From assembly GCA_017475265.1 (NCBI GenBank), contig JAFVFY010000079.1, forward strand, positions 14,119 to 78,118: a stretch of 64,000 bases of DNA, given 5' to 3'. Position 1 is the first letter of the stretch, and every line of letters begins with the position of its first letter. The notes under the pieces are model-generated. The model saw only the letters and a program-made list of their open reading frames with translations, did not search any database and was not told the origin of the DNA. The DNA is from Prevotella sp. (GTDB lineage Bacteria > Bacteroidota > Bacteroidia > Bacteroidales > Bacteroidaceae). Shown in pieces: positions 3,898 through 48,094 of the stretch. A program made the position numbers and the translations under genes.

Positions 3898-4983
3898 ATG
3901 ACTACATACCTGTATATTAATGGAAGATTCCTGACGCAGCCCATGACGGGTGTGGAGCGCTATGCTTACAATATCTGTAAGGCGATGGCCGCTCTTCATC
4001 AATCGTTTACCATTGTGTGCCCAAAAGCACCTGTTCATCAGGACTATGATGTGAGCGACTTGAACATCGTTCATTACGGTATCGGCAACTCACACTTTTG
4101 GGAGCAGTGTGTACTTCCGTTCTTCTTCATTGGAAAAAAGAAATATCTCGTGGTCAGCTTCACAGGCTTAGGTTCTATACTGATAGGTCATAAGATGATG
4201 ACTATCCACGATTTGGCTTTTCTGAAAAATCCCTCATGGTATTCACGGACTTACTATTGGTATTACAGGTTGATGACACCTTTGGCGGTGAAAACCTCGC
4301 AGCATATCCTGACCGTCAGCGAATTCTCGAAAAGCGAGATACTCCGTTTCTATCCGTTCCTGAAAGGAGAGAAAATCAGCGTGGTCTATAATGCCATTGA
4401 CCGGCAACTGTTCAGACCATTGAACTCAGAACTTGTTAAGGGGGATTTACAATCCCCTGGTTCAGAACGCTTTGTCCTCTGTGTGTCATCCATCGACCCG
4501 AGAAAGAACTTTGCACGACTCATAGAAGCCTGCCAGGGTCTGACAGATGCCAAACTCTATATCGTTGGCAAAAACAACCGCGAGTTCAGCCAGCAAAAGG
4601 AACTGGACACTACCTCTGAGCATATTCACTTTCTGGGCAAAGTAAGCGATAATGAACTTGTTCGTCTCTATAATCAGGCAGCATGTTTTGTCTTTCCATC
4701 TCTATATGAGGGATTCGGACTCCCACCACTTGAGGCAATGGCATGCGGCTGTCCCGTGCTTGTTTCCGATATTCCAGTAGAACATGAGGTATGCGGTGAC
4801 GCTGCAATATATTTCAATCCGCTCGAATCCAATGACATTCTGCATACAATTAAACAATATTTAAACAATGCTGACGTTATAAGAGAAAAGATGCGTCAGA
4901 AAGGCTATGAAAACATCATGCGATTCTCTTGGGAAAAATCTGCAGAAGTGTTGATGAAGATTATTTCAGATAATCGTAAATGA
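3898..4983 (+). CDS. GT4 (GT-B) glycosyltransferase
   Basis: INGRFLTQPMTGVERY, TIHDLAF, PRKNF, FVFPSLYEGFGLPPLEAMACG. Confidence 0.93.
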   Translation: MTTYLYINGRFLTQPMTGVERYAYNICKAMAALHQSFTIVCPKAPVHQDYDVSDLNIVHYGIGNSHFWEQCVLPFFFIGKKKYLVVSFTGLGSILIGHKMMTIHDLAFLKNPSWYSRTYYWYYRLMTPLAVKTSQHILTVSEFSKSEILRFYPFLKGEKISVVYNAIDRQLFRPLNSELVKGDLQSPGSERFVLCVSSIDPRKNFARLIEACQGLTDAKLYIVGKNNREFSQQKELDTTSEHIHFLGKVSDNELVRLYNQAACFVFPSLYEGFGLPPLEAMACGCPVLVSDIPVEHEVCGDAAIYFNPLESNDILHTIKQYLNNADVIREKMRQKGYENIMRFSWEKSAEVLMKIISDNRK

Positions 4984-6113
4984 AGAAGACTATATTACAG
5001 ATAGCAAAATATTATTATCCTGTCGAGGGCGGCATAGAAACTGTCACCAAATACCTAGGCGAGGGGCTGACAATGTTCGAGAATGTTGTCGTATGCTTCA
5101 GCCAAGACGGTATCACGCGCATTGACATGGTCAACGGCGTCAAGGTTTACCGTATTGCGTCGTCCATGAATATAGCCAGTCAGGATATTGCTTTCTCGTA
5201 TTATCGCTACTTGAAGAAAATCATTTACGAAGAACAGCCAAACATTATTCTGCTACATTGTCCCAATCCTTTTCTGTACCCTATCGCAGCCAAGCTAACA
5301 CCCAAGAATGTTAAACTTGTCCTGTTATGGCACTCTGACATTCTTGGCAAAGGCATACTCTACAGGCTAGTCAAACAGTGTGAAAAGTCAATACTGAAGA
5401 AAGCGGACCTCATTCTAGCCACAAGTCCCAACTACATCCACCCGTCGAGTCCCATTTACGACTATCGCGAAAAGACGAAGGTAGTGCCTAACGGCATCAT
5501 CGAGAACGATTTCGTGTGGCGGACAGGCGACGAGACGATGGTAGAAGAAATCCGCCGGAAATACCTTCATAAGAAAATTGTATTCTTTGTGGGTCGCCAT
5601 ACGGCCTACAAAGGTATCAACTATCTCATCGAGGCAGAGAAGTATATTCAGTCCGACTGTGTCATCCTTATTGGTGGGCGTGGCCCTGAAACTGAACGAC
5701 TGAAAGCAAAGGCCAACTCCGACCGTATTAAGTTTATCGGACGCATTCCCAACGATTATCTGCGTTGCTACTACTATGCCTCCGACATCTTTGCCTTTAC
5801 CTCATGCACCAAGCAAGAGGCGTTTGGCATAGCGCTGGCCGAGGCCATGTATTGTGGCAGTGTACCTGTCACCTTCACCATAGAGGGGTCTGGTGTCAAT
5901 TGGGTTTCTGTGAAAGACGAGACAGGAATAGAGATACCGCTTGGCGAAGTAAAAGCATACGCAGAAGCGATTGACAAACTATTATGTGACAAAGAACTCT
6001 ATTCCAAATATGCCTCTGCTGGAAAGAACCGTATAGTCAGCATGTTTACTAGCAAACAGTCCATTATTGAAATTAATAAAATCTTCGGTCAGCTTATTTC
6101 AGATGTGGAATAA
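4980..6113 (+). CDS. GT4 (GT-B) glycosyltransferase
   Basis: KYYYPVEGGIE, GRHTAYKG, EAFGIALAEAM; overlaps the upstream stop (ATGA). Confidence 0.92.
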   Translation: MKKTILQIAKYYYPVEGGIETVTKYLGEGLTMFENVVVCFSQDGITRIDMVNGVKVYRIASSMNIASQDIAFSYYRYLKKIIYEEQPNIILLHCPNPFLYPIAAKLTPKNVKLVLLWHSDILGKGILYRLVKQCEKSILKKADLILATSPNYIHPSSPIYDYREKTKVVPNGIIENDFVWRTGDETMVEEIRRKYLHKKIVFFVGRHTAYKGINYLIEAEKYIQSDCVILIGGRGPETERLKAKANSDRIKFIGRIPNDYLRCYYYASDIFAFTSCTKQEAFGIALAEAMYCGSVPVTFTIEGSGVNWVSVKDETGIEIPLGEVKAYAEAIDKLLCDKELYSKYASAGKNRIVSMFTSKQSIIEINKIFGQLISDVE

Positions 6114-6150
6114 GTAATCCACTGACTCCATTTTGATAATTGCGGCTGCT

Positions 6151-6320
6151 GGTTACAGTTACAGTGGTTACAGTTAAAAAAAGAGGGTATGCATCTCCTT
6201 CTAATCTCTTACAATTTTATTATAACTTATTGATATATAATTAGTTATATATATAATATATATTATATAGAGGAAATGACACCCCCTCTAAAAACAACTG
6301 TAACCACTGTAACTGTAACC
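6151..6320. repeat. Perfect 25-bp inverted repeat around an AT-rich (TA)n core
   Basis: GGTTACAGTTACAGTGGTTACAGTT (6151-6175) and its exact reverse complement (6296-6320). Confidence 0.9.
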
Positions 6321-6382
6321 GCAAGCCGATAATTGTTCATCTAAAAAGCTAATAATCAATGAGATACAATATCAGTAAAAGC

Positions 6383-6572
6383 ATGTCACCCGAGATGCCT
6401 ACCCTCGGAAAGGGTACAGATTGTATCAAATTACTGCTCTAAAGGCCTCAAAAGACGTGTTTGAACCCCTGTTTCCGATGTTTTCCCTGTTCTTGGTGCA
6501 TATATCAGCGGCGCAGAATTTCATTATTCCAACCTTACTTGGAAGGAAAATGAACCAGACAAAACCGATTAG
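6383..6572 (+). pseudogene. Frameshifted remnant resembling the N-terminus of a Prevotella DUF3987-type mobile-element protein
   Basis: Stitching three frames gives MSPEMPTLGKGTDCIKLLL/KASKDVFEPLFPM/FPVLGAYISGAEFHYSNLTWKE; family recognised from memory only. Confidence 0.35.
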
Positions 6573-6627
6573 ATTCTTAACGCGGATGGCCACAAATTAA
6601 GTCAGATGATAAGTCATTTAGAACACA

Positions 6628-6678
6628 AACTAAAAAACGGCAAAAATTTTGCTATTTGCCGTTTTTTAGTTACCTTTG
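6628..6678 (+). promoter_or_regulatory. abiE promoter with 17-bp inverted-repeat operator
   Basis: AACTAAAAAACGGCAAA (6628-6644) / TTTGCCGTTTTTTAGTT (6655-6671), abutting -7 box TACCTTTG (6671-6678). Confidence 0.75.
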
Positions 6679-6702
6679 CACCGTCTTTAATATCATGGTG
6701 CA

Positions 6703-7422
6703 ATGGTAGGAGTAAGCGATATCATCTTGAACTATGCCTCCAGTCTCCCGCAGTTTTCAGTCGATGACATGCCGGTGGCTGTTACTTCAGGCATCGATAG
6801 AAACACGTTAAGCTGGCATCTGAGCAATCTGTGCCGGAAAGGTAAATTGCGCAGAGTTGGCCGTGGTGTCTATACGTCTCAGCCTGCTAATATATATAAT
6901 GTAAAGGCCAGTGCGAAAGCCCGCTCAATTTACCGGGCTTTAGCAAGTCGTTTCCCCTTTGCTGACTTTTGTGTGTACAGCGGAAGTGTCATTGCGCCAT
7001 TGTTGCATGATATGACACCGAATAACAATATGTACATAGAGACAAACCGGGAAGTGACCGAGAGCGTTTTCAATATGCTGCTGCCAAAGTATCAGGGCCG
7101 GATTTTCATTTCACCAACCAAAGAAATTGCGACCACCTATATTGACCTTGGTAAAGAGAACATCATTGTAAAGCCGCTGGTGACTGAGGCGCCCTTGGCG
7201 CTTGACGACAAGGTGCCAGTTCCGACATTGGAGAAGTTGCTTGTTGATACAAGGGTAGATGACGATTTCTACTATTTGCAGGGCTATGAGAATCTGGAAA
7301 TGCTGAGGACTGCCATAAGCCATTACGATGTGAACAAAAATCGGCTACTCAGGTATGCAGACCGCAGGAACGCGAAAGACTCAATAATAAAGGATTTAGA
7401 GACCATACAGGATAATGATTAG
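6703..7422 (+). CDS. abiEi: Type IV TA antitoxin, AbiEi-like (wHTH + DUF6577-like)
   Basis: N-terminal wHTH (LSWHLSNLCRKGKLRRVGRGVY), VPTLEKLLVD motif, overlaps the downstream nucleotidyltransferase. Confidence 0.8.
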   Translation: MVGVSDIILNYASSLPQFSVDDMPVAVTSGIDRNTLSWHLSNLCRKGKLRRVGRGVYTSQPANIYNVKASAKARSIYRALASRFPFADFCVYSGSVIAPLLHDMTPNNNMYIETNREVTESVFNMLLPKYQGRIFISPTKEIATTYIDLGKENIIVKPLVTEAPLALDDKVPVPTLEKLLVDTRVDDDFYYLQGYENLEMLRTAISHYDVNKNRLLRYADRRNAKDSIIKDLETIQDND

Positions 7423-8476
7423 GAAAGAGTGTTTTGAAGAGGAGTGGATTGGGAAAGTCTGCTCCAGCCACAGGTTCCGGCATCCCGCCTTGGTCGAGAA
7501 GGTTATCAGGGCCTTCTCGCTGCTGGAGATGCTGGCTAAGGAAGGATGTCCCTTGACATTCAAGGGAGGCACCAGCCTTCTCCTGATACTTGGCGGCAAT
7601 GCACGTCGCTTGTCAATAGACATCGATGTGCTTTGCCCTCCAGGAACGGAGATTGAGCGGTATCTGGAAAACTGCGAGAAATACGGATTTACAGTATGCA
7701 AGGCCATCAGGCGTGAGAACAGGAACGGAAATGTGCCAAAAGGACATTACAAGTCGTTCTTTGAAGTGGTTTATTCTGACCAGATTGAAGACTCTGTGCT
7801 GCTTGATGTGCTCTATGAGGACAATCACTACAGACATGTTGAGGAGAAGGTGCTGCAGCATCCCTTCATCGAGTCGGATGCGGACAGAACTGTTGTCCAG
7901 GTGCCGTCTGTTGAAGACATCCTCGCTGACAAACTAACTGCATTTGCGCCTAACACAAGCGGTGTTCCTTATTACAAGGGTACGCGCAATTTCACCATCA
8001 ATGTTGCCAAGCAGCTTCATGATGTAGGCCGTCTGTTTGATGCAGCTAACGATTTGAGTGTAGTCGCTGCAACTTTCAAAGACATAGCAGCTATCGAACT
8101 GTCATACAGGGGGAAGTCCGATGACATCAGCATCATTTATGAAGACATTAGGAACACTGCAATGGCATTGGCCACCCGAGGGAAGGTTGATACTAACGAA
8201 GATTTTGAATTGCTGAAGGAAGGCGTTGACAAACTCAAAAGCCATATCTTCTCTGGACGTTACACACTTGACAATGCCATCAGCGATGCGGCGAAGGCGG
8301 CATATCTCGCTACACTAATTGAACACGATGCCTCTGTTATTGAAAGGTATTCTGGCAACCCGTCGGAGTTGAAGGACAAAGTACTACCTTCAGTTAGTAA
8401 AGAATTGGCCAAGCTTCGTCGTGGTAATCCAGAGGCGTATTTTTACTGGATTAAGATAAGTGAACTGCTTATGTGA
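7415..8476 (+). CDS. abiEii: Type IV TA toxin, AbiEii nucleotidyltransferase
   Basis: LVEKVIRA, FKGGTSL, RRLSIDID, ILADKLTAF, KQLHD. Confidence 0.88.
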   Translation: MIRKECFEEEWIGKVCSSHRFRHPALVEKVIRAFSLLEMLAKEGCPLTFKGGTSLLLILGGNARRLSIDIDVLCPPGTEIERYLENCEKYGFTVCKAIRRENRNGNVPKGHYKSFFEVVYSDQIEDSVLLDVLYEDNHYRHVEEKVLQHPFIESDADRTVVQVPSVEDILADKLTAFAPNTSGVPYYKGTRNFTINVAKQLHDVGRLFDAANDLSVVAATFKDIAAIELSYRGKSDDISIIYEDIRNTAMALATRGKVDTNEDFELLKEGVDKLKSHIFSGRYTLDNAISDAAKAAYLATLIEHDASVIERYSGNPSELKDKVLPSVSKELAKLRRGNPEAYFYWIKISELLM

Positions 8477-8584
8477 AGAAGCGAAGCTATACCGTTTATC
8501 GGGTTTCGAACTTGCACACAGTGTGCTGACTATCAATTATCTCTCCCAGACCCTATTCCACTTTATTTTGATAATTGCCTGGAA

Positions 8585-8622: not shown

Positions 8623-8639
8623 CATAATGAAAGGAGGAG

Positions 8640-9823: not shown

Positions 9824-9827
9824 GAAG

Positions 9828-19490: not shown

Positions 19491-20068
19491 TGGACTACCT
19501 TGACATTATCACAACAATACTCGGCCTGATTTACATCTGGTTAGAATATCGTGCACACATCGCTCTGTGGGTGGTGGGCATCATCATGCCCGCACTCGAC
19601 ATCGTGCTCTACTGGCAGCACGGGCTCTATGGCGACGCAGGCATGGCGTGCTACTATGTCCTGGCCGCCCTCTACGGTCTGTTCGTGTGGAAATTCAAGA
19701 AGACAAGGAAGAAGAAGGAGCCGTTGCCCATCATCCGCATGCCGCGCAGCAAGTACCTGCCCGTCGTGGTGACCTTCCTGGCGGCATGGGGCATCATCTA
19801 TTATATATTAGTGACCTGGACCAACAGCACCGTGCCCGTTCTCGACTCATTCACCAACGCCATGTCGTTTGTCGGTCTCTGGGCACTGGCACGTAAGTAT
19901 CTGGAGCAGTGGCTCTTCTGGATTGTGGTCGACATCGTTTGCGCCGTCCTCTACGTACACAAGGACATCCCCTTCAAGGCCGGACTCTACGCCCTCTACG
20001 TCATCATCGCCATTGCCGGTTATTTCAAATGGAAGCAAATGACAAAAGAAGTTCACTCTGAACCATGA
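19490..20068 (+). CDS. pnuC: PnuC-family transporter (thiamine-specific PnuT type)
   Basis: Multi-TM; LDSFTNAMS, LARKYLEQWLFWIVVD. Confidence 0.9.
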   Translation: MDYLDIITTILGLIYIWLEYRAHIALWVVGIIMPALDIVLYWQHGLYGDAGMACYYVLAALYGLFVWKFKKTRKKKEPLPIIRMPRSKYLPVVVTFLAAWGIIYYILVTWTNSTVPVLDSFTNAMSFVGLWALARKYLEQWLFWIVVDIVCAVLYVHKDIPFKAGLYALYVIIAIAGYFKWKQMTKEVHSEP

Positions 20069-20724
20069 ACTATTTTGATATTGTAATTGTTGCCAACGGC
20101 ACGTTTCCCACGCACCCCGTGCCCCTTGCTGTGCTACAAGGAGCCAGGCACATCGTGGCTTGTGACGGGGCCATTGCCCAGCTTGCTGCTCACGTTCAAG
20201 GTGATTTGCAATCCCCGACACTTCACCTCACGATAGTTGGCGACGGCGACAGCGTTCCCGCCGAGTATCGCCATCTGCTGATAAAGGTGGAGGAGCAAGA
20301 GGACAACGACCTGACGAAAGCCACCCGATATTGCCTTGGCAACTACCCCAAAACCAACACCCAACACCCAGCACTCCGTATCGCCTACCTCGGCTGCACC
20401 GGCGCACGGGAGGATCACACGCTGGGCAACATCTCACTGCTCATGCGCTACTACCGCGAGATGGGCGTAGAGGGGTGTATGTTCACCGATAATGGTTTCT
20501 TCACTCCAGCCCGGGGCAACCGCACTTTCAACAGCTTCCCCGGCCAGCAGGTGAGCATCTTCAACTTTGGCTGCACGCAGCTCACCTCCGAAGGGCTCAA
20601 GTGGGACAGCTATGCCTACCGCGAATGGTGGCAGGGCACACTAAACGAAGCTGTCGGCAACAGCTTAACGCTGTATGCCGACAGCTACTATCTGGTATTC
20701 CAGACTTACGAAAAAATCCGTTAA
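20065..20724 (+). CDS. thiN: Thiamine pyrophosphokinase
   Basis: VACDGA, IVGDGDS, EQEDNDLTKA, GAREDHTLGN. Confidence 0.92.
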   Translation: MNYFDIVIVANGTFPTHPVPLAVLQGARHIVACDGAIAQLAAHVQGDLQSPTLHLTIVGDGDSVPAEYRHLLIKVEEQEDNDLTKATRYCLGNYPKTNTQHPALRIAYLGCTGAREDHTLGNISLLMRYYREMGVEGCMFTDNGFFTPARGNRTFNSFPGQQVSIFNFGCTQLTSEGLKWDSYAYREWWQGTLNEAVGNSLTLYADSYYLVFQTYEKIR

Positions 20725-21021
20725 ATCTGTGTAATTCGTTTTAATCCGTTGTTTCCCTACGAAAACGAGTGACATTATATCGCCTTCGAAGGTCACGAGA
20801 TTATACGAAGAGATGTTCATGGTCACATTCGTGAACGTCAGCCTCCTGGAGCCCGGCTCCCAGTCAATTGTGCCACTCGTCTTTCCGTCAACACTTATGT
20901 TAGTGAGTTTGGAGTACGCGTCAAGCTCCTTGTTGCCTATAAGCAACTTATTGCCGGCCATCATCTGTGGCCCCATGATTGCTCCTATCATGAGGGCAAA
21001 AAATAGAAATAGTTTTTTCAT
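20665..21021 (-). pseudogene. Short secreted-protein N-terminus, probably truncated
   Basis: Good signal peptide (MKKLFLFFALMIGAIMG) and about 70 aa of beta-rich domain; the frame then reads through a repeat and antisense into thiN. Confidence 0.4.
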
Positions 21022-21322
21022 TAGTACTTAATTTTATGTTAATAAATAAGATTTTGTTATTGTCAGGTTTTATATACGCAAAACAGCATGTCACGGCCCC
21101 TATAAAGGAACTTTCTATGGCTCGTGGCGGTGTTCGTTTTCGAAAATTTGGTGCAAAGACACGGAAAAAAAAGTTAACCTCCAAATGTTTCGTCAATTTT
21201 TTTTAACAAATAGAGCAAGATGCCTATAACAGGTCGGATTCTATCTTTCCTCAAAATTTTCTTTGATTTTTATCAAAGTTGCACCTTTCACTATAACCGT
21301 CTGAACTACTGTTTGTTAACAT

Positions 21323-21582
21323 AGGTGCACCTTTTTCTGAAAGTTCCACCAAGTTCCACCCAAGTAAAACAAGTTGTTTTTACCTGAGAAAAAGCCGTTC
21401 TTTGTGAGGGTTTGGACGGACTTATCTAAGGTAAAACAACTTGTTTTACTATTTCAGTATCCTTTCTGTCAATCAAAGAGCTCGTCACTTTTTACTGCTC
21501 ATAACCGGACTTTTACATTCTTAGACTCGTTTTACCCCCCAAAAGGTGCATGTTGGTGGAACTTTCAAAACAGCATGCACCT
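21323..21582. repeat. Nested inverted repeats in AT-rich intergenic DNA
   Basis: Outer arms AGGTGCAC..TGAAAGTTCCACCAA (21323-21352) / TTGGTGGAACTTTCA..TGCACCT (21553-21582); inner arms 21363-21385 / 21429-21450. Confidence 0.8.
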
Positions 21583-21699
21583 CTAGAAACGCCTATAAAT
21601 AAAGGCGTTTTCAAAGAAAGTGGAACTTTTCGCTATTTTTATAAAATATTTTTGGCCATTCCACTTATTATGTGTATTTTTGCAGAAAAAATTAACGAT

Positions 21700-22332
21700 A
21701 TGCTCTGCAAATTACAAATACTACGCGCTGCCTTTTTCCTCCCATCAAGGGGAGGGGCAGGGTTGGGGCTCCCATACGTTGCGCTATTGCTGATGATGAT
21801 GTCGTGTACTCCCTTTGGCCGCAGGGGGCAGACGGTAGACACAGACTCGTTGAGCATGGCCGCCCACGACGGCGATGCCCGTGCACAGCTGCTCATGGGA
21901 CTACGCTGCGACCGCGACAGCCTCTTCGCCGAGGCTGCCATGTGGTATGAGCTGGCCGCCCGTCAGGGACTGGCCGAGGCACAGAACAACCTGGGCGTGA
22001 TGCTGAAGGACGGGCTGGGCGTGGAGCGCGACGAGGCTAAGGCTGCGGAGTGGTTCCGACGTGCGGCGCAGCAGGGCAATGTGCTGGCGGAGTCGAACTT
22101 GGGATGGATGTTTCACGGTGGAAGGGGTGTGGAGCAGAACTACGACTCGGCACACTACTGGTATCGCAAGGCCGCCATGCAGGGGCATGCCGCCGCGCAG
22201 AACAACCTCGGACTGCTCTTCCGCGACGGCCTGGGACTGCCGCAGGACAGTGACTCCGCCCGCTACTGGTTCTCAATGGCAGCAGAACAGGGACTGCACC
22301 AAGCTCGCCACAACCTTGAAACAATGAATTAA
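21700..22332 (+). CDS. Sel1-like repeat lipoprotein
   Basis: Lipobox-like LLMMMSC; repeats AQNNLGVML...GV...AAEWFRRAAQQG. Confidence 0.88.
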   Translation: MLCKLQILRAAFFLPSRGGAGLGLPYVALLLMMMSCTPFGRRGQTVDTDSLSMAAHDGDARAQLLMGLRCDRDSLFAEAAMWYELAARQGLAEAQNNLGVMLKDGLGVERDEAKAAEWFRRAAQQGNVLAESNLGWMFHGGRGVEQNYDSAHYWYRKAAMQGHAAAQNNLGLLFRDGLGLPQDSDSARYWFSMAAEQGLHQARHNLETMN

Positions 22333-22522
22333 AAATTTGTGGAGAAAAGTTTTTAAAAACACTATACATTCCTACATTTTTGATGTAATAGTCTAAGTAT
22401 AAATGGTTTAGGCAATGTATAGAGCCTACATAATTGATGAGCTCTATACATTCATTGAAAACAAGACGTAGGACTGTAACCGCAATAACGTATCTAAGTA
22501 TAGGATAATCAGTTTGTTTCCC

Positions 22523-22588
22523 TTTGTTTCTCCCGTGGAAACAATTTGTTTCCACGGGAGAAACAAACAGTTTCCACGGAGGAAACTG
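22523..22588. repeat. 22-bp perfect palindrome plus adjacent 8-bp hairpin
   Basis: TTTGTTTCTCCCGTGGAAACAA-T-TTGTTTCCACGGGAGAAACAAA, then CAGTTTCC-ACGGA-GGAAACTG. Confidence 0.9.
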
Positions 22589-22811
22589 AAAGACACTTAG
22601 TCTTCTGTCTATGTATAGAGGTACCATTCTATGTATAGTCTATACATAAACTAACATTCTGTATATATGTGAGTTAAGATGAAAAATGCAGGAATGTATA
22701 GAGAAATCAAATAAAATCTGTGATAAAAATTGCGAGCCCACTTTAGATAGTGGACTCATTTCTGTTCCTTCCAAATATTTCAGCATTTTTCTTCACTTTC
22801 TCGCGAAATTA

Positions 22812-22843
22812 TTTGGTCGTGTCGTGGAAAGTGCTTAATTTTG
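22812..22843 (+). promoter_or_regulatory. Bacteroidota sigma-A promoter (-33 TTTG, -7 TAATTTTG)
   Basis: TTTG at 22812-22815, TAATTTTG at 22836-22843. Confidence 0.7.
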
Positions 22844-22844
22844 C

Positions 22845-23122
22845 ATCGCCATACTGAGAACCGCGACGAGCCGCAGTTCTGTGATGGGTGGCATAAATCG
22901 AGGAAAGCTGAAAAGCTTAGTTCCGCTTGTGAACCTGGAAAGTCACTGTACTAAGGAATAAGTTTGAAGGCTGTTCTTCCTGTTGTGTATATATACGCTG
23001 CCAAAAACATGCCAGCTCACATATATGCCTGCAGGTGTGAGCTGTCATTTCATTCTTATTAGTACAGGTATTCCAGGACCAACAAGCTGAGAATGTAAAG
23101 TTCGAGGCTCACACTCTTTTTA
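22845..23122 (+). ncRNA. Candidate long structured 5' leader of the LRR gene
   Basis: 22925-22962 pairs with 23055-23087, enclosing hairpin 23009-23021/23036-23048; ends in a T-run at about 23117-23122. Confidence 0.5.
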
Positions 23123-23147
23123 TATGAAAACCAAATTATAAAATGAT

Positions 23148-26100
23148 ATGAAACAAACGAGAATCATTCTTCTACTCATTTCCGTAATGAGTTTGGCAAC
23201 GACAAGTGCAAATGCATACGATGCACTGATTAATGGAATTTATTACAATCTATACGGAGGTTACAATACAGCTGAGGTTGTGATGGGTAATCCCTATGAG
23301 GACAGACCGTATGAGCAAGTTGAGGAAAATTACTATCACGGCGATATTGTCATCCCTGAAAAAGTAAAGTATAATGGCATTACTTACACAGTAACTACTA
23401 TAGGAAAGTGGGCTTTCTTCAACTCAAAGCTGAACTCCGTAACGATACCACACTCAATAAAGAAAATAGAAAGCAATGCTTTTGAGTGGTGCAACAGTCT
23501 GTCGGCAGTATATATCTCAGATTTGGAGGCTTGGTGCAACATAGAGTTTGCCAAGGATATTGACTCGGAATATCATATCTCGGAATTTGAAGGAAACAAA
23601 TCCAACCCACTTACAATTGCAGGAAATCTGTATTTAGGAGGTATTCGTATTACAGATTTAATAATACCAGCCTCAGTTAAGGAGATTGGCTTTTCTCAGT
23701 TTAGCGGTATCAATGTCAACTCTGTGGTCATTCCAAGCAGCATAACTTCAATAGGAGACTACGCTTTCTTCAAAGGTAATGTGGGAAAGGTCGAGGTGCC
23801 TGAATCGATAAAGAGATTGGGAGACTTTTCTTTCGCATGGTGTACGCTGTCTTCCATCAATTTGCCAGAAAGCATTGCCATCTATGGCATTGCCACATTC
23901 AGTAATGCCAGTCTTACATCTATATCACTGCCCAAGAACATGAAATCCATTCCTAACAGAACGTTTGAGGGCAGTATGTTGCAATCTATCGACATTCCTG
24001 AAGGTATGAAGCAAATCGGAGAAATGTCGTTTGCCAGTTGTCAATATTTGAAAAAAGTCAACATTCCCACGACTGTTGATTCCATTGGCTATTACGCATT
24101 CGCAGGATGTAGTGCCCAAATCCATGTCAAAGATTTGGCAGCATGGTATGAGATTGGTTTTTGGGATTCTTTTTATGAAGCGACTTATTCGTTGTGGGTC
24201 AATGGAGAGGAAACGGTAAACTTGGTTATCCCTTCCGAAATCAAACATATAAAAAACGGAACCTTCCAAGGCTGTGCGAGCATCCGTAGCGTCAAGATAC
24301 ATGATGATGTGAAATCTATTGGTAGCAGTTCTTTTTATGGCTGCAAAAATCTTCAAACCGTTTCTATCGGAAATGGAGTACCTGCTATCGGAAGTTCTGC
24401 TTTCAGTGACTGTGTGAGTCTTAGCAATGTAGAAATAGGAGAAAATGTTGCCACTATAGGTGTAAGTGCATTTCAGAGATGTGTAGAATTGCCGTCCATA
24501 ACCATACCAGAAAGTGTTACTCGTATAGAGTCGTATGCTTTCGAAGGCTGTACGAAGTTGACTACCGTTAATTTGCCGAATAGCATACAATTCGTTGGTA
24601 CAGGAGCATTTTATGATACTGCATGGTACTTGAATCAAGATAATGGCTTGATGTACTTAGGCAATGTGGCATATAAATACAAGGGTGTGATGCCTGATAG
24701 TACAACCATCAACATAAAGGATGGCACTGTCGCTATTGCGGAGGGAGCTTTCAAAGGTTACCGTAATCTGGTTTCTGTGAATATGCCCAACAGTCTTGAA
24801 TCCATAGGACTAAATGCGTTCGAAGGCTGTAGTGGTCTGACTTCAGTTTCAATTCCTGGCAAAGTGGCGACAATAGGTGCAAATGCATTCCAGTATTGTG
24901 AGAGTTTGAGCAATGTGAATCTGGAGCATGGCGTGACAGAAATAGGAATATATGCATTTAACAATTGTAGCAGCTTAACTTCTATTATTATTCCTGGAAG
25001 TGTGACGAAAATAGGCAATAACGCTTTCAATGGATGTGGGCTAACGGAAGTGAAAATATCTGAAGGGGTTTCTTCGATTGGTAGTAGGGCATTCGCCTAC
25101 TGTAACAATCTGTCTTTGGCAGAGTTTCCTAACAGCATCATATATGTTGGCATGGATGCATTTTACAAGACAGCCTGGCTTGACAGTCAACCAGACGGAC
25201 TAATCTACATTGGGAGGGTAGCTTATAAATACAAGGGTGAAATGCCTGACAATACAAATATAGAAATCAAAAAAGGAACAAAGGCCATATCAGGTGCAGC
25301 ATTCAATGGTTGTATAGGTATGACTTCTATACATATTCCAAGTAGCATCACTTCGATTGGCTCTTCATATAGTGACTGCAAGAAATTGTCAGCAGTATAT
25401 ATAACAGATTTAAAGGCTTGGTGCAACATTGAGTTTGAAGGCAATCCTTTGCAAGCTGCTCATCACTTATACCTCAATGGAGAAGAAATAAAGAATCTGG
25501 TTATACCAGAGGGAATTTCGTCAATAGGGAAAAACTCCTTTGCAGGTGGCAGTGGCTTCACGTCAGTTGCCATGCCCAGTGGCATCACATCTATTGGTGA
25601 ACGTGCCTTTTTCAACTGTTCTGGCTTAGCAAACATACAATTCTCGGAAAATCTTACAAACATAGAGCCGTATGCATTCTGTGGATGCAGCAGCTTAGAA
25701 TCTTTGTCTTTACCTAATGGGCTCCAATCAATTTCGTTTGAAGCTTTTAAAAATTGTTCTGGGCTTAAGACTATTAGTATTCCTAAGACCGTAACAGAAA
25801 TTTCGAGTTGGGCCTTTTCCCGTTGTGGAAATCTGGAAAATGTCATATCGCTTATTGAGTCTCCCTTCGAGATTTATGAGACTGTGTTTTCTGTTGAAAG
25901 CGAGCCATCATTAGTGTTTACTACAGCAAAGCTATATGTTCCCAAGGGCACAAAGGAGAAATATGAAACAACAAAAGGATGGAACAAATTTGAGCATATC
26001 ATAGAAATAATTCCTACAGGTGATAAATGCGCAACTCCCACCATCGCCTACGAACAGGGCGAGCTGGTGTTCAGCTGCGAGACTGAGGGCGCACAGTTCG

Positions 26101-32285: not shown

Positions 32286-35108
32286 ATGAAAAAGACATTT
32301 GCATTGCGGAGGGCATCGGCAATTCTCGTTACCATGCCCTTTATGTTGTTGGCCACAGAAAGCCAGGCCCAACAGCTGAAAGTAGACATCAGTATCACCA
32401 ACCGACAGGCACAGGAGGTACAGGAGCCAGGCTACGCGCTCTGGCAAGTCGCACAGGGTAAGAGCACATCGATGGAGTTTCCTGTTGAAGGGGATTTGCA
32501 ATCCCCGATTACCTGTACGCTATCGTGCCCCGCCGATGCCGACTACGAGATTCGCACGGGTTGGAGCAAGACCTACATCCAGAACGCCACATATAAAGAG
32601 CAGAACGGCCGACTGACCTTCGATGGTATCAGCCTCGACCCCCGCACCTACGGTTCATTCACGTTGAAGATAAAAGGTCTGCCCGCCGGCCAGCACACCA
32701 TCCAGACTTATCATAACTGCTGGGAGAATCCCACAGCCTTCTACGCCGCCCCGATGACTGTCAAACTAAACGGCGAGGTTGTGCATGAGAATGTCGTGCC
32801 CTCGTTCCTCCAGTCCGTGGCTGCCAACGCCACCCTGCTCGTCACCCCCTTCACCATTGCTGTCGACGGTTCCCCCGTCGAGCTGGAATTCATCACCTCG
32901 GACAGCAACCCCGGCATTGCGCCGAGCGGTTCGCCCGCGAGCAACGAGTTCCAGGCCCCACTGCTCAACGGCTTCGAGCTGAACACCGCCGATATCACCG
33001 TGCAGGCCAAGGAACCCTACCCCGCCAACAACGACATGCACGCCAACTGCGACGGTGGCAGCGTCACGCTGAGCTGGACACCAGCATCGACCAGTGTCAA
33101 GGAGCACCGACTCTATTTCGGTAAGAGTGAGGATAACCTCACGCAACTGGCTACCATAGTGGGCAACGCTTCCGAGCGTTGCGAACACACCGTAGACGGT
33201 CTCTACAGTGGCAACACCTACTACTGGCGCGTCGACGAGGTGACAGCCGCCCCCGAGGGAGGGGAGATCGTCAACGAGGGCACCGTGTGGTGCTTCAAAC
33301 CCCGTCAGCTGGCCTTCCCCGAGGCCGAGGGCTACGGCCGTTTCGCCATCGGCGGACGAGGCGGAAGCGTCTACCACGTGACGAGCCTCTCCAATGAGAA
33401 CGTTCCCGGCACACTGAAGTACGGACTGCTGCTCGACGAGCCCCACACCATCGTGTTCGATGTCTCCGGCATCATCGACCTGGGCTTCGAGGCCATTTTC
33501 ACCAAGCCCTATATCACCATCGCCGCCCAGACAGCCCCCGGCAAGGGCATCTGTCTGAAGGCTTCCAACATCAACATCGGCTCCGACAACATCTGCCGCT
33601 TTCTCCGCTTCAAGCGCGGCCTGGGGGTCTACGGCGAGAACACCGGCAACGCTATGGGCATGAGCGGCGCCGACCACAGCATCGTGGACCATTGCACAGC
33701 CGCCTGGGGCACCGACGAGACCGTCTCCGGCCGCGGAGCCAAGAACATCACCTTCCAGTACAGCGGCATCTTCGAGGCACTGGGCATCACTGGTCACAAG
33801 AACTACAGCGACGGCACTAACCACGGCTATGCCGCCACCATCGACGGACAGAAAGGCTCCTGGCACCACAACCTGCTGCTCAACTGCGAGGGCCGCAACT
33901 GGAGCATGGGCGGTGGCATGGACGGACAGAACCGGCCCATCGGCGGACTTGATCTATTTAATAATGTGTGCTACAACTGGCACAACCGCACCACCGACGG
34001 CAACTGCCACGCCGTGAACTTCGTGAACAACTATTATAAAATGGGACCCGACACGAGCAAGAAGCTGCTTTTCACCCAGGACTTCGAGGGTGGCATAGCC
34101 GACGACGGCATAGACCAGGCCTACATCAACGGCAACATCCGCGAGAACAAAGACCACTCGCTGACTATCCAGACGAAGGCGCTCGACAAGAAGGGTGACA
34201 TCTTCAACGCCCGAGCCAGCAACGGCGGCAAGCTGCCCACCACCTACGAGTATCAGGTCACTGAGCCTCTCTTTGAGAGCTTCGCCACCATCCACACGGC
34301 CAAAGAGGCCATGAAGATTGTCACCTCCTACGGCGGTGCCATCATGCCCATGCGCGACGAGCAGCACCAGCGCGTCATCCGCGAGACCCTCGATGGCACC
34401 TGGACCTACCGTGGCTCGAAGAGCAACATCCGAGGCGAGATAGACAACGAGGCTGATATCACCGACGCTGCCAACGGCGGCTGGGAGGAATGGCCCGAGG
34501 AGACCCGCGCCGAAGACTGGGACACCGACCTGGACGGTATGCCCGACTGGTGGGAGCACATCACAGGCAGCGACCCGCAGACCGCCAACCACAACGACGA
34601 CCCCGACGGTGACGGCTGGACACTCTTGGAGGACTACCTGGAGTTCATGGCCCACCCCTACGTCATCATCGGCCTTGCCAGCAGCGCAAGCATCGACCTG
34701 AAGGAGCACTTTACCGGCTTCTACGGACAGAATGGCAAGACTGTCACACCCACCTACACCGTCGACTATATAGAAAACCACTTCTCACCCTCCATCGATG
34801 GTGACATTCTCACAGTCAAGTCTTTCAACACGCCCTGCACAGGCTATTGCGTGGTACGGGTCAACGATGGCGAGACCACCTTCACCCAACGCTTCGGCGT
34901 GGCCGTCACCCACGACTTCCAGCCCCTAAAGGGTGATGTCAATGGCGACGGCACGGTCAACGTGGCCGACATTGCCGCCGTCATTGATGTGATGGCAGGG
35001 AATGTAACGCTAGGAAGCGTTACCCACTACGCCGACGTCAACGACGACGGGACGGTAGATGTAGCCGACATCGCAACCATCATCTCCATTATGGCAGGAG
35101 AAGAATAA
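32286..35108 (+). CDS. Secreted pectate lyase (PL1-type) with accessory domains and C-terminal dockerin
   Basis: AFPEAEGYGRFAIGGRGG, AAQTAPGKGI, DHCTAAWGTDE, DTDLDGMPDWWE; dockerin GDVNGDGTVNVADI...DVNDDGTVDVADI at 34932-35108. Confidence 0.9.
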   Translation: MKKTFALRRASAILVTMPFMLLATESQAQQLKVDISITNRQAQEVQEPGYALWQVAQGKSTSMEFPVEGDLQSPITCTLSCPADADYEIRTGWSKTYIQNATYKEQNGRLTFDGISLDPRTYGSFTLKIKGLPAGQHTIQTYHNCWENPTAFYAAPMTVKLNGEVVHENVVPSFLQSVAANATLLVTPFTIAVDGSPVELEFITSDSNPGIAPSGSPASNEFQAPLLNGFELNTADITVQAKEPYPANNDMHANCDGGSVTLSWTPASTSVKEHRLYFGKSEDNLTQLATIVGNASERCEHTVDGLYSGNTYYWRVDEVTAAPEGGEIVNEGTVWCFKPRQLAFPEAEGYGRFAIGGRGGSVYHVTSLSNENVPGTLKYGLLLDEPHTIVFDVSGIIDLGFEAIFTKPYITIAAQTAPGKGICLKASNINIGSDNICRFLRFKRGLGVYGENTGNAMGMSGADHSIVDHCTAAWGTDETVSGRGAKNITFQYSGIFEALGITGHKNYSDGTNHGYAATIDGQKGSWHHNLLLNCEGRNWSMGGGMDGQNRPIGGLDLFNNVCYNWHNRTTDGNCHAVNFVNNYYKMGPDTSKKLLFTQDFEGGIADDGIDQAYINGNIRENKDHSLTIQTKALDKKGDIFNARASNGGKLPTTYEYQVTEPLFESFATIHTAKEAMKIVTSYGGAIMPMRDEQHQRVIRETLDGTWTYRGSKSNIRGEIDNEADITDAANGGWEEWPEETRAEDWDTDLDGMPDWWEHITGSDPQTANHNDDPDGDGWTLLEDYLEFMAHPYVIIGLASSASIDLKEHFTGFYGQNGKTVTPTYTVDYIENHFSPSIDGDILTVKSFNTPCTGYCVVRVNDGETTFTQRFGVAVTHDFQPLKGDVNGDGTVNVADIAAVIDVMAGNVTLGSVTHYADVNDDGTVDVADIATIISIMAGEE

Positions 35109-43385: not shown

Positions 43386-43481
43386 AGTCTGAGGCCGTTC
43401 ACACTTTTTCCTGCATCCGCTTTGTCATTTCAGCAAAAATGAGTAATTTTGCGGCCAAATTGAAATAGAAACAAAGACAAC

Positions 43482-45077
43482 ATGAATCAGGAGATAGAAC
43501 GCAGGCGAACGTTTGCAATCATTTCGCACCCCGATGCGGGTAAGACCACACTAACGGAGAAGTTCCTTCTCTTCGGCGGACAGATACAGGTGGCAGGAGC
43601 CGTGAAAAGCAACAAGATAAAAAAAACAGCCACCTCCGACTGGATGGACATCGAGAAGCAGCGCGGCATCTCGGTATCGACGTCGGTCATGGAGTTCGAC
43701 TACACCCCTCCCTCGGAGGGGACGGGGGAGGTTTATAAGGTGAACATCCTTGACACCCCCGGTCACCAAGACTTTGCCGAGGACACTTTCCGTACGCTGA
43801 CCGCCGTCGACTCGGCCATCATCGTGGTTGACGGTGCCAAGGGCGTTGAGACCCAGACGCGCAAGCTGATGACTGTCTGCCGCATGAGGAAGACGCCCGT
43901 CATCATCTTCATCAACAAGATGGACCGTGAGGGCCGCGATCCCTTCGACCTCCTCGACGAACTGGAACAGGAACTCGAAATCAAAGTCCGTCCCCTCTCC
44001 TGGCCCATTAACCAGGGTGCCAAATTCAAGGGCGTGTACAACATCTACGAGCAGAAGCTCGACCTCTTCACCCCCGACAAGCAGCGCGTGACGGAGAAAG
44101 TTAGTGTGGAGTTCGGATCCGTCGAGCTGGACGATAAAGTCGGAGAGCAGGACGCCCAGAAACTCCGCGACGACCTGGAGCTGGTGGAGGGTGTCTACCC
44201 CGAGTTCGACGTGGATACCTACCGTCAGGCCGAAGTCGCTCCTGTATTCTTTGGTTCGGCGCTCAACAACTTCGGCGTTCAAGAACTGCTCAACTGCTTT
44301 GTGGAGATAGCCCCTTCGCCCCGTCCAACGAAAGCCGAGGAGCGCGACGTGCAGCCTGAGGAGCCCAAGTTCACGGGCTTCATCTTCAAAATCACCGCCA
44401 ACATCGACCCCAACCACCGCTCGTGCATCGCCTTCTGCAAGGTGTGCTCCGGCCGTTTCCAGCGCAACCAGCCCTATCTGCATGTGCGTCAGCAGAAGAC
44501 CATGCGCTTCACCTCGCCCACGCAGTTCATGGCCCAGCGTAAGTCGACCATCGACGAGGCCTGGCCGGGCGACATCGTCGGTCTGCCCGACACCGGTGGC
44601 ATCTTCAAGATAGGCGACACGCTGACCGAGGGCGAACTGCTCCACTTCCGCGGACTGCCCTCCTTCTCGCCCGAGCTGTTCAAGTACATCGAGAACGATG
44701 ACCCCATGAAGGCCAAGCAACTACAGAAGGGCATCGACCAGCTCATGGACGAGGGCGTGGCCCAGTTGTTCGTCAACCAGTTCAATAACCGCAAAATCAT
44801 CGGCACCGTCGGCCAGCTGCAGTTCGAGGTTATCCAGTACCGCCTGGAGAACGAGTACAATGCGAAGTGCCGTTGGGAACCCGTCCACCTCTACAAGGCC
44901 TGCTGGATTTCCAGCGATGACGAGGAGGAACTCAACTCCTTCAAGAAACGCAAGTACCAGTACATGGCCAAGGACAAGGAAGGTCGCGACGTGTTTCTCG
45001 CCGACAGCGGTTACATGTTGCAGATGGCACAGCAGGACTTCAAGCACATACAGTTCCACTTCACCAGCGAATACTAG
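43482..45077 (+). CDS. prfC: Peptide chain release factor 3
   Basis: [42 protein letters not shown]. Confidence 0.97.
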
Positions 45078-45086
45078 CTATTGCTC

Positions 45087-45131
45087 CTATAGAGACTATA
45101 GAGACTATAGTAACTATAGCAACAATAGCCT
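45087..45131. repeat. CTATAG-core 9-mer repeat downstream of prfC
   Basis: ctatagaga ctatagaga ctatagtaa ctatagcaa caatagcct. Confidence 0.88.
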
Positions 45132-45255
45132 CTATCCCTCCAAAAGAGGAAAAATAGCGGCCAGCCAAAACTTTTCTGCAAAAATGTTTGGTGGTTTCAG
45201 GGAATTTACTTAACTTTGCCGCGTAAACATAGAATTAACTTTAAATTTAATCATT

Positions 45256-45756
45256 ATGCAAAGAAAACTATTAGTTTCCGCGCTGCTCTTGCTGTTGGCC
45301 TTTGTCGGGGCAAGGGCGCAGACTGACGAGCAGAAATCGCTGTGTGCTGTGGTTGAGCAGACCGATGGCACAACAACGGAGTATATGCTCAATGAACTGC
45401 CACAAATCACCTATGGTTCCAATGTTGTGAAACTCGCCACGAGCTTCACAACTGTAGAGCTACAGTCCTCGAAAGTGGCCCGTATCTATATGGCAGAGAA
45501 AGGCTCTGCGCAGGGAATAAAAGCCACGAAATCATCACAGGCAGTTGCACATGTGGATGTCACCCCAACTGCCGTTACTGTCACGGGGCTTGAGCCGGGC
45601 AGTGATGCCGCTCTTTACACTGCCGACGGACGTTGTCTGAAAGCCACTACCGCCGCATCCGACGGTACTCTCTCACTGCCCATGCCGACAAAATCGCAAG
45701 GTGTCCTTATCGTAAAAACAAAGAATCAATCATTTAAAATCATCAATAAACAATGA
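45256..45756 (+). CDS. Small secreted protein with a T9SS type A-like C-terminal domain
   Basis: Signal peptide; ALYTADGRCLK...QGVLIVKTKNQSFKIINK. Confidence 0.75.
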   Translation: MQRKLLVSALLLLLAFVGARAQTDEQKSLCAVVEQTDGTTTEYMLNELPQITYGSNVVKLATSFTTVELQSSKVARIYMAEKGSAQGIKATKSSQAVAHVDVTPTAVTVTGLEPGSDAALYTADGRCLKATTAASDGTLSLPMPTKSQGVLIVKTKNQSFKIINKQ

Positions 45757-46478
45757 AAAAGTTATTTACCCTTATAGCTGCCGCCATGCTGTGCGTGGGA
45801 GCGCAGGCACAGTCAGTAAACATTCACTTAACGAACGGAAAATCTATCGGTTTTTCCGGCAGTGAGGTTCAGTATGTAGATTTTAACGAGACCAATGCCG
45901 CTTCATCAGGTACTTTCTGGATCAAATTCAAGGGGTGTTCTGTTTATTGGGCTAGTAGAAACGTCGGAGCTGAGAACGATTACGACTTCGGTAAATTTTT
46001 CACATGGGGAGAAGCAGATGGTTTCTTTCCGATATCATACGATGGAGATTACAATTTCTACCCTCAAAATCGTGAATTTAAAGAGCAGAATATAACTTCA
46101 TTTGCAGATGGTGCCCAGAAAAACTGGGGTAATCCCTGGACTGTGCCATCAGTAAAGGACGTTAATGATCTGTTAGACAACACCCAAAGTTATTGGACTA
46201 CTTATCAAAACACTGGCATTACTGGTAGGTGGTTTGTCGGAACAAATGCAGAAACGAACAAGCCTGATTCTATTTTCTTCCCTGCTGCATCCCAGTTGAT
46301 TTATGACAAATGGACGGAAGTAGGAAGATTTGGATGCTACTGGGCTAAAGATCAGGCAGACAAGGAACATGGCGGTGGTTTATTCTTTGGCACTGAACCA
46401 GATAATTCATATAGGATTTATAATGCTGAACTTAAGTGGCATGGACTGCCTATACGTGCCGTCCGCAGTACAAAATAA
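45753..46478 (+). CDS. Secreted protein with a C-type-lectin-fold-like (DUF1566/FSMP-like) domain
   Basis: Signal peptide; YWASRNVGA, FTWGE, SIFFPAA, GCYW...GLPIRAVR; overlaps the upstream stop. Confidence 0.65.
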   Translation: MKKLFTLIAAAMLCVGAQAQSVNIHLTNGKSIGFSGSEVQYVDFNETNAASSGTFWIKFKGCSVYWASRNVGAENDYDFGKFFTWGEADGFFPISYDGDYNFYPQNREFKEQNITSFADGAQKNWGNPWTVPSVKDVNDLLDNTQSYWTTYQNTGITGRWFVGTNAETNKPDSIFFPAASQLIYDKWTEVGRFGCYWAKDQADKEHGGGLFFGTEPDNSYRIYNAELKWHGLPIRAVRSTK

Positions 46479-46561
46479 CATTCCTGTCTCATGCGAAACA
46501 CTCGGGCGAATCGCTTTGCGATTCGCCTGATTTTTGCCAATAAAATAATGAATACACCGAA

Positions 46562-48094
46562 ATGAAAAAGAGAGCACTTCTTCTAGCCACGCTGCTCGTC
46601 ATGGCAACCGTGGCGATGGCGCAGCAAAGCATCAGCGTCAGCTACAAGGGTCAGCAGCCTGTCATCACCGATTTTGTCAATGCCATCCTCTCGCAGCGCG
46701 AGCTGAACGAGGCGTTGGACAACGTAAGGAACAACTGGAACCGCCGCCGGCTGGGACAGCAGATGGCAGAAGGCGTGGAGTTCATCGTCGATGAAAGAAA
46801 TGGCTTCGTTCGTTACGACATAGCTTACAGTCCCGCAGAGCGCAGCTGGACGGAGTTCTGCTACTGGAACTGCAACGACGGCACGCACAAGCTCGTAGCC
46901 GTAAACACTGGTCATGAGCTGCGCTTCAAGCCGGTACAGACAGAGTGCACGGGACTGACGTTCTACAGCTACGACAACCAGACGCGTACCCTTACCCCTG
47001 CCTCGGCCCACGACCTTGGAGCCTCCATCATCGTCACCCCCGTGGTGAACTACCGTCTGCCACGCCAAGGGAAGGACATCACGGCCGTCATCAACGCCAA
47101 GGACAAGCCCGTGAACATCGTCATGCACTGGGACGGCATGAAGTTCCACCAGGAGCAGACGCAGACCCCAAGCCAGACAGCTGGAGGGGATTTGCAATCC
47201 CCGACAAGAATGGTCATGAACCACGGTGTAGAGGAGGAGAAAGAGTACATCCGCGTGACTACTGCCGAGGGATTCCTTAACGCGATAGGCTCCGAGCGCA
47301 ATATCCTCATCGCCGCCGACACGGAGATAAACCTTACACCCGCATTAAACGACGCCGCCAACTTCCGCACCACCTACCGTCTGTGGATGCCCGATGCCAC
47401 AGCCATCATCAAGGGGAAGTCGTGCATAGTCAGCGAGGAGGTGTTCGACGGTCGCCAACTGACGCTCGTAGGCTTCAAGAAACTCCTCATCCGTGGTGAG
47501 CGTAACTCGCGCATCACCGTCGACCCCCGCTACGCCTTCTGCCTCCGCTTCATCGACTGCGAAGACTGCACCGTCGACAACCTCACCATCGGTCATACCG
47601 AGGGAGGCTACTGCGAGGGCGGCGTCATCGGCATCACAGGCGGGCGCAACACGATGGTCTGCAACTGCGACCTCTACGGCTGCGGCACCTACGGGCTGGA
47701 GATTGAAGGCACGGACGGCTTCAACATGTTCGCCTCGAACATCCACGACTGCACATACGGCATCATGCAGCTGCGCAGCTCGCGCAATCTGAACTTCATC
47801 CATAGCGACTTCTTCAACAACCGTGAGTTCGACCTCATCGGAAGCCTCGGCTGCGAGGGACTTTCGTTCGAGGACTGTCGTTTCTTCGCCAACTGGGGCG
47901 ACTCCCCGCTCTTCAGCATCGACAACGAGTTCCGCCTCTCGGGCTGCGCCATCTATCATCCTACGCAGAACCTGGGTACCATCGACCTGGCCAACCAGTC
48001 GGAGATAAGCAACCAGTTCTCAGAAAACCCGATTGACAATAATATTACAGGTCGCGAGATAGGTCCCGACGGCCACTGGGTACACACGAAATAA
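46562..48094 (+). CDS. Secreted protein with a right-handed parallel beta-helix domain
   Basis: Signal peptide; VTTAEGFLNAI, NLTIGHTEGGYCEGGVI, CDLYGCGTYG, NIHDCTYGI. Confidence 0.75.
   Translation: MKKRALLLATLLVMATVAMAQQSISVSYKGQQPVITDFVNAILSQRELNEALDNVRNNWNRRRLGQQMAEGVEFIVDERNGFVRYDIAYSPAERSWTEFCYWNCNDGTHKLVAVNTGHELRFKPVQTECTGLTFYSYDNQTRTLTPASAHDLGASIIVTPVVNYRLPRQGKDITAVINAKDKPVNIVMHWDGMKFHQEQTQTPSQTAGGDLQSPTRMVMNHGVEEEKEYIRVTTAEGFLNAIGSERNILIAADTEINLTPALNDAANFRTTYRLWMPDATAIIKGKSCIVSEEVFDGRQLTLVGFKKLLIRGERNSRITVDPRYAFCLRFIDCEDCTVDNLTIGHTEGGYCEGGVIGITGGRNTMVCNCDLYGCGTYGLEIEGTDGFNMFASNIHDCTYGIMQLRSSRNLNFIHSDFFNNREFDLIGSLGCEGLSFEDCRFFANWGDSPLFSIDNEFRLSGCAIYHPTQNLGTIDLANQSEISNQFSENPIDNNITGREIGPDGHWVHTK

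Follow-up and report, generated by a model that had tools for sequence, protein, structure and literature searches.

Repetitive extragenic palindromic sequences (REPs) are extragenic by definition, and the way in which REP-associated tyrosine transposases (RAYTs) spread them is unsettled. Among the Rickettsia palindromic elements (RPEs), RPE-1 has a size of roughly 100-150 bp. The RAYTs of subclass 2.6 correspond to RAYT group 5 of Bertels et al. and are found mostly in Bacteroidetes; their genes are bordered by 'atypical' secondary structures that are repeated elsewhere in the genome (Quentin et al., PMC6006769). Di Nocera et al. (2013, PMC3733652) described intragenic REPs of the GTAG/CGTC type, among others in Opitutus terrae and R. 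conorii. Here we analysed a stretch of 64,000 nucleotides (hereafter the window; C115:14119-78118) from a draft genome of the Prevotella group, G000 (4.75 Mb, 135 contigs, 52% GC), in which the palindrome GGGGATTTGCAATCCCC lies in frame within four unrelated genes and is read as the peptide GDLQSP. The palindrome is the core of a real, recently active REP-like hairpin element, most likely connected with a Bacteroidetes RAYT.

Searching the window with up to two mismatches gave four matches to GGGGATTTGCAATCCCC, all on the plus strand (Table 1), compared with a mean of 0.03 in shuffled versions of the window, of which none in 100 reached four. The four copies, their unrelated host open reading frames (ORFs) and the GDLQSP reading were all found as the first-pass annotation of this DNA had reported them. 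Its description of 7-bp-stem hairpins with one mismatch was right in that one stem is broken, by a GGGG to GGTG change in GGTGATTTGCAATCCCC at 20200-20216. However, two copies rather than one deviate from the consensus, the other being GGGGATTTACAATCCCC at 4441-4457, with a loop change of TGC to TAC and an intact 7-bp stem. Across both strands of the whole genome, exact copies number 32, and allowing one mismatch raises the count to 56 and two mismatches to 82. The reversed control pattern gave 0 copies (compared with 56 at up to one mismatch).

Alignment of the copies revealed a conserved block of CTGYTNRA, GGGGATTTGCAATCCCC and G(ACC), spanning -8 to about +20, and the element is accordingly longer (~26-30 bp) than the 17 bp initially assigned to it. 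The leader is strongly conserved (positions -6, -4 and -1 are G, T and A in 98%, 93% and 88% of copies, respectively), is confined to hairpins with a ATTTGCAAT centre and renders the element asymmetric, while the tail consists of G at +17, often followed by ACC. The hairpin is composed of a 7-bp stem and a 3-nt loop, with a predicted folding energy as single-stranded DNA of -6.2 to -6.6 kcal/mol (z about -3), and rare variants preserve the stem through paired changes (GCGG..CCGC, CTGG..CCAG and TCGG..CCGA). The consensus unit has zero stop codons in all six frames. Most copies are solo or in direct tandem, with a period of 21 bp within genes and 30 bp elsewhere, and one inverted pair was seen (C40:35757/35929). 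The leader triplet covaries with the tail triplet (mutual information of 1.63, compared with at most 0.93 in shuffles), which could reflect either subfamilies or a guide-to-target relation, the latter resembling the pairing of guide and cleavage site in IS608-type elements. Orientation relative to replication was assessed by local GC skew, which was usable for only 18 copies and tracks the gene strand. An origin from tRNA was considered, given that the reverse complement, GGGGATTGCAAATCCCC, resembles the anticodon arm of tRNA-Cys, and was rejected as the corresponding arm in this genome differs (acggtctgcaaaaccgt). A full-text literature search found the element sequence in no paper and the peptide string in a single, unrelated one.

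As a separate observation on the inverted pair, the two copies (C40:35757-35945) lie 172 bp apart inside a single ORF for a membrane protein of 385 aa, and both sit in an extended sequence common to the two, GTGTAGGGGCAGGTG..hairpin..GGTGCCAGCCCG. This extended sequence was also encountered at C6:34087, C40:17870 and C63:16865 as well as in other genomes, and represents a composite subfamily.

Six-frame translation of the genome contains 39 GDLQSP occurrences, essentially all of which are encoded by the same DNA word with no synonymous codons, and each of the remaining 719 orderings of these six residues occurs at most four times. Other copies of the same DNA are read as (R)GFAIP, GICNP, GDCKSP, GIANP or GLQIP, and some are intergenic. 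Since a single DNA word accounts for the peptide and orthologues do not contain it, the repeated unit is a DNA element and not a protein motif.

Comparison with the nearest relatives, at 70-84% DNA identity, demonstrated that the copies are DNA-level insertions missing at orthologous sites. Fifteen congeneric orthologues of the thiamine pyrophosphokinase have no GDLQSP segment, which in G000 occupies a variable loop before the VGDGDS motif, confirming by alignment the insertion that had been predicted. Among closer metagenomic homologues of the kinase, three (79-86% identity) carry the element, one of them as an expanded array, and two (78-79%) do not. At the DNA level, CAC/GTTCAAGGTGATTTGCAATCC/CCGACA in G000 corresponds to CAC/CCGACC in P0005, a difference of 21 bp. 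In G015, G152 and G082, eight more host sites of G000 are unoccupied, among them those in the GT4 glycosyltransferase gene, in sufB and in genes encoding a glycoside hydrolase, a TonB receptor and an asparaginase, bringing the insertion sites that are empty in related genomes to nine in all. These three genomes possess the RAYTs closest to that of G000, and G082 holds 17 copies of the element at other places. The gap in sufB is a clean 27 bp between codons; across the empty sites the length differences range from 9 to 27 bp, because the host loops also vary otherwise. The quanta of 21, 27 and 30 bp are all multiples of three. No target-site duplication was visible at the kinase or SufB junctions, and the element is a single hairpin with an asymmetric leader, unlike a miniature inverted-repeat transposable element with its terminal inverted repeats and target-site duplication. 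In an AlphaFold model of the kinase (pLDDT 86) the insert is a loop that joins helix 34-43 to strand 54-59, and in the asparaginase it falls between the two Pfam domains. The proposal that the element donates peptides in the manner of RPEs is supported by the single DNA word, the empty orthologous sites and the modelled loop.

Two further lines of comparison were discarded. An apparent conservation of the element while its flanks diverge was attributed to ascertainment bias, given that both orthologous copies had been picked by their 17-mer match, and the unbiased kinase case shows ordinary decay. Relatives among S. copri could not serve as an exact empty site, as the neighbour genome carries a whole extra gene at the junction and no boundary is readable. 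The copy in the GT4 gene had been assigned to an AT-richer stretch that it was thought to have entered late. It does lie in such a stretch (window positions 1-8000, 43.5-47.5% GC, compared with 50-59% in most of the window), and a late insertion would fit both this composition and the G152 GT4 orthologue, which is without the element. It was also observed that in-frame heptamer arrays replace the element at the same protein positions, namely (GACATCA)n in the GT4 orthologue of G152 and (GAAGAGT)n in the G082 orthologue of the host ORF at C102:22353, which has no Pfam match; the short repeats gathered by the same permissive loops thus vary from species to species.

Scanning the GTDB species genomes located the leader and hairpin in many Prevotella, in Segatella copri and in other Prevotellaceae of the rumen and gut. 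Within the GTDB genus the distribution is patchy, with the element in 51 of 251 genomes and at least eight copies in 18, G000 being the richest. At one intergenic site of S. copri, some strains carry one unit and others three 30-bp units. Carriage by phages was rejected, as the 10 exact matches in 2.9 million viral contigs are at about chance level by a rough estimate and most have no leader.

G000 contains three Pfam Y1_Tnp matches, of which C20:26234-26770 encodes its one RAYT, matching NF047646 ('REP-associated tyrosine transposase') with 97.6 bits (cut-off 80). The protein has 179 aa, and its motifs NHLH, (F)WQ and YIHQNP match subclass 2.6 (motif table in PMC6006769); the best solved structure is that of the E. 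coli TnpA_REP (4er8), a weak match with E = 0.029. The RAYT gene and a small neighbour gene lie between two inverted hairpins, CCGTTCA-GCCGAATTTGCAATTCGGC and CTGTTCA-GGCGAATTTGCAATTCGCC, which have the leader and the ATTTGCAAT centre of the dispersed element and a different outer stem, and a hand alignment gave 22 of ~27 flank positions equal to the dispersed CTGTTCAA-GGGGATTTGCAATCCCC. RAYT homologues were found in 13 of 250 congeners. Hairpins with a ATTTGCAAT centre flank 11 of the 12 homologue loci inspected, with stems that vary by RAYT lineage, and in G010, G266 and G074 near-exact GGGGATTTGCAATCCC(C) is present in hairpin clusters beside the RAYT homologue. Among 50 element-bearing genomes 8 have the RAYT, compared with 5 among the 200 that lack the element (odds ratio 7.4, p = 0.0009). 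The link is therefore one of family resemblance and statistical association, rather than mobilisation demonstrated.

Two other arrangements were noted around such genes. The RAYT homologues of G010 (Segatella sinensis), G266 and G074 lie between two direct copies of a ~250-bp cluster of four different hairpins (GGGGGATTACAAATCCCCC, CGGCGGATTTCAAATCCGCCG, CGACGGATTTGCAATCCGTCG and GGGGATTTGCAATCCCC), which resembles a bacterial interspersed mosaic element (BIME) and is found in the same context in a few IMG/VR contigs. In G000, a second, stronger Y1_Tnp match (75 bits) at C37:7392-7733 is flanked by CGGGGGTGACAACCCCCG and CGGGGGTTATCACCCCCG (C37:7265-7939), and the hairpin of this transposase-plus-hairpin pair is present in only ~5 copies.

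Taken together, we consider it probable that the element is a REP-like miniature repeat of ~26-30 bp, which is moved in trans by a RAYT, a step that we infer, and is retained in frame as RPEs are. The 17-mer is the hairpin core of a unit comprising the CTGYTNRA leader, the 7-bp stem, the 3-nt loop and the G(ACC) tail. The enzyme, which belongs to the Bacteroidetes subclass 2.6 of the RAYTs (HUH/Y1 transposases), would recognise leader and hairpin on single-stranded DNA. Copies landing in permissive loops, linkers and signal peptides would then be kept, and the host protein is expected to stay intact at such sites because the unit has no stop in six frames and is gained in multiples of three.

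The reading frame of the copies was examined in this draft genome with genes approximated by ORFs and a codon score. Of the 56 copies with at most one mismatch, the GDLQSP frame accounts for 35 (62%; p = 2e-14), and sense copies outnumber antisense ones by 43 to 13 (p = 7e-5). A stricter codon-usage test on both flanks left 30 clearly genic copies, 22 of which are in the GDLQSP frame, and in the other genomes 58 of 144 copies at 101 loci are in this frame. The first-pass annotation had the peptide always in this frame and saw no intergenic copy, both of which are true for the window; genome-wide, just the 35 copies conform, ~10 are intergenic and about 80% are in ORFs, a share like that of random positions. 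Host ORFs are intact, with coding-like flanks on both sides of the element, which, like the loop position in the kinase model, is indirect support for translation of the insert in functional host proteins. ORFs of 200 aa or more contain 49 of the 56 copies (88%), compared with 84% of random positions. The frame bias is not accounted for by stop codons, as the consensus has none in any frame. Copies in the hydrophobic RGFAIP frame are located in N-terminal signal or lipoprotein peptides and GDLQSP copies in loops and linkers, which points to selection on the encoded peptide. We infer that the frame bias is shaped by such selection, which would favour hydrophilic VGGDLQSPT in loops and, in signal peptides, hydrophobic RGFAIP.

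Several observations weigh against mobilisation by the RAYT followed by retention in frame. The flanks of the G000 RAYT are a sister hairpin, of a type found only twice in the genome, both times at the RAYT, and the RAYT-adjacent copies in G010, G266 and G074 have no CTGYTNRA leader. The REP/RAYT likeness originally suggested is supported by the one RAYT of the genome, the exact or near-exact palindrome beside a RAYT homologue in three congeners and the co-occurrence, with the correction that the RAYT's own flanks share the leader and centre of the dispersed palindrome but are not the same palindrome. Most element-rich genomes are without a RAYT of this clade, including G048 (98% complete), G150 (93%) and G220 (94%). 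The unit boundary is ambiguous, at 21, 27 or 30 bp. By codon score, 55% of copies are genic, compared with 59% of random positions, although ~26% would be expected had copies been inserted at random and most frames (five of the six) then been lost (p about 1e-5). Finally, a target-site cause of the frame bias was tried and rejected, since the natural codon phases of CCCCGAC, CCGAC and CT all predict other frames: 77% of genic CCCCGAC is in the ATC-CCC-GAC phase, the CCG-ACN phase makes up only 5% of genic CCGAC, and genic CT is codon-final in only 11% of its occurrences.

The alternative that survives best, though we regard it as unlikely, is a spread independent of any transposase, in which replication or repair copies the hairpin via template switching, slippage or short-patch gene conversion and RAYT genes merely collect hairpins. 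The exact 21- and 30-bp arrays and the one or three units at a single S. copri site do resemble slippage, heptamer arrays fill the same protein loops in relatives, and the scarcity of the RAYT clade in element-rich genomes is in line with it. Slippage, however, accounts for the arrays and not for more than 50 unrelated sites with a conserved asymmetric leader, and neither the significant co-occurrence of element and RAYT nor the hairpin centre common to the RAYT flanks in 11 of 12 loci is what this alternative would lead one to expect.

A less probable proposal is that the insertion step, and not just later selection, favours the coding strand and a single codon phase, as a subclass 2.6 RAYT might do by acting on the single-stranded non-template strand of transcribed genes. 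Indirect support comes from the genic share, which equals that of random positions despite 62% of copies being in one frame, and from the phases of the target words, which predict other frames. If it were true, the reading frame would be the usual home of this REP system, a dedicated 'peptide-writing' element that diversifies the loops of Prevotella proteins.

Somewhat more doubtful again is that the element is kept for a useful role in sense orientation, such as an mRNA or DNA hairpin signal or a flexible peptide module, with its frame set by positive selection. The excess of sense copies, the dominance of one frame and the genic copies not being depleted relative to random positions agree with this, as does the large number of secreted or surface proteins among the hosts (SusD, TonB receptor, GH2 and beta-helix). 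On the other hand, the hosts are functionally unrelated, the element is missing from most congeners and from the orthologues of every host tested, and orthologous copies decay like ordinary sequence, as evidenced by GGAGACTTGCAATCACC in P0002 and the reading GDLQSL in P0003.

It is very improbable that the GGGGATTTGCAATCCCC hairpin is spread by a cassette with a DUF559 (Vsr-like) nuclease. The only DUF559 gene of the genome (C99:15704-16157, outside the window) is bracketed by hairpins, CCCCTCCTAAAGGGAGGGG and CCCCTCCCTTTGGGAGGGG, but these belong to a different family (CCCCTCC..GGGAGGGG), no GGGGATTTGCAATCCCC-family copy adjoins the gene, and the CTGYTNRA leader is specific to ATTTGCAAT hairpins. 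A DUF559 nuclease may spread that other family. That GDLQSP is an ordinary protein motif or a chance recurrence with incidental DNA identity, as the same peptide in the same frame of four window proteins might suggest, can be dismissed with near certainty given the chance expectation of 0.03, the lack of synonymous variants among the 39 occurrences, the orthologues without the peptide, and the same DNA being read in five other frames and found between genes.

The four window copies and their hosts are listed in Table 1. The host of the third copy had been labelled a pectate lyase, which was not confirmed by Pfam.

Table 1. Copies of the element in the window, from leader to tail, with the Pfam assignment of each host ORF.
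Copy	Span	Hairpin	Strand	Leader	Hairpin sequence	Tail	Host ORF	Pfam assignment of host	Position and reading
1	4433..4460	4441-4457	+	CTTGTTAAG	GGGGATTTACAATCCCC	present	3898-4983	GT4 glycosyltransferase	in frame, VKGDLQSPG
2	20192..20219	20200-20216	+	CACGTTCAA	GGTGATTTGCAATCCCC	GAC	20065-20724	thiamine pyrophosphokinase	in frame, VQGDLQSPT
3	32482..32509	32490-32506	+	CCTGTTGAA	exact GGGGATTTGCAATCCCC	GAT	32286-35108 (940 aa)	fn3 and dockerin domains only	in frame, N-terminal part, VEGDLQSPI
4	47178..47205	47186-47202	+	CAGCTGGA	exact GGGGATTTGCAATCCCC	GAC	46562-48094	right-handed beta-helix	in frame, AGGDLQSPT

Other repeats were observed in the same genome. The CCCCTCCC-N3-GGGAGGGG family, which brackets the DUF559 gene, constitutes a second, independent family of in-frame hairpins; it numbers 42 copies, and 93% of these fall within ORFs of 200 aa or more. 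A hairpin present in 114 copies, CCCCCTAAGTTAGGGGG, is mostly intergenic (24% in long ORFs). Tandem heptamer repeats (AACTCTC, ATGGTCA, ATTTGAG, ATTTACG and others) are very abundant, for example at ~21000-23000 of the window and in many intergenic spacers. A second AT-rich stretch of the window extends from 22000 to 26000, with 40-42% GC.

These results describe a REP-like family of a little-studied Bacteroidetes RAYT subclass that is mainly genic in abundant bacteria of the gut and rumen (Prevotella and Segatella copri), and provide a candidate mobiliser for at least one in-frame hairpin family of Prevotella. A substrate of 29 nt and an enzyme of 179 aa would make a compact system for RAYT mobilisation. 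Next to Rickettsia, the element would also provide another, independent example of selfish DNA writing peptides into proteins. For annotation and strain typing of Prevotella, short in-frame indels and 21- or 30-bp copy-number variants in housekeeping genes, for example sufB and the gene for thiamine pyrophosphokinase, stem from this element.

Compared with known systems, the IS200/IS605 family (IS608 and ISDra2) shares the Y1/HUH enzyme family and a hairpin with a short, here putative, 'guide' 5' of its foot, but the present element carries no transposase gene of its own, and a defined target tetranucleotide, as in IS200/IS605, was not found for it. Like RPEs and the intragenic REPs (PMC3733652), it is a palindromic repeat lying in frame in many unrelated, apparently functional genes, to which it adds a peptide at permissive sites. 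It differs from RPEs in being far shorter (7-10 residues), in its sequence and in its phylum, and unlike them it has a candidate transposase and one dominant frame out of six. With the REP/RAYT systems, in particular subclass 2.6 (PMC6006769; PMC2817692; PMC5581495), it has in common a short hairpin dispersed in tens of copies; it resembles them in its conserved 5' leader and in the single-copy RAYT gene, which lies between inverted hairpins that appear to belong to one family with the element, and the stem differences between RAYT lineages are consistent with co-evolution. In contrast to those systems, the foot motif is CTGYT-NRA and not GTAG or CGTC, the hairpins beside the RAYT of this genome are sisters of the dispersed copies rather than identical to them, and the copy number is modest (56-82). 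The copies are also mostly genic and solo or in direct tandem, whereas REPs are extragenic and often arranged as inverted REPIN (REP doublet forming hairpin) or BIME pairs. The element matches the 'atypical' structures of subclass 2.6 (PMC6006769), rather than the classical REPs with extragenic location, inverted pairs and a GTAG foot.

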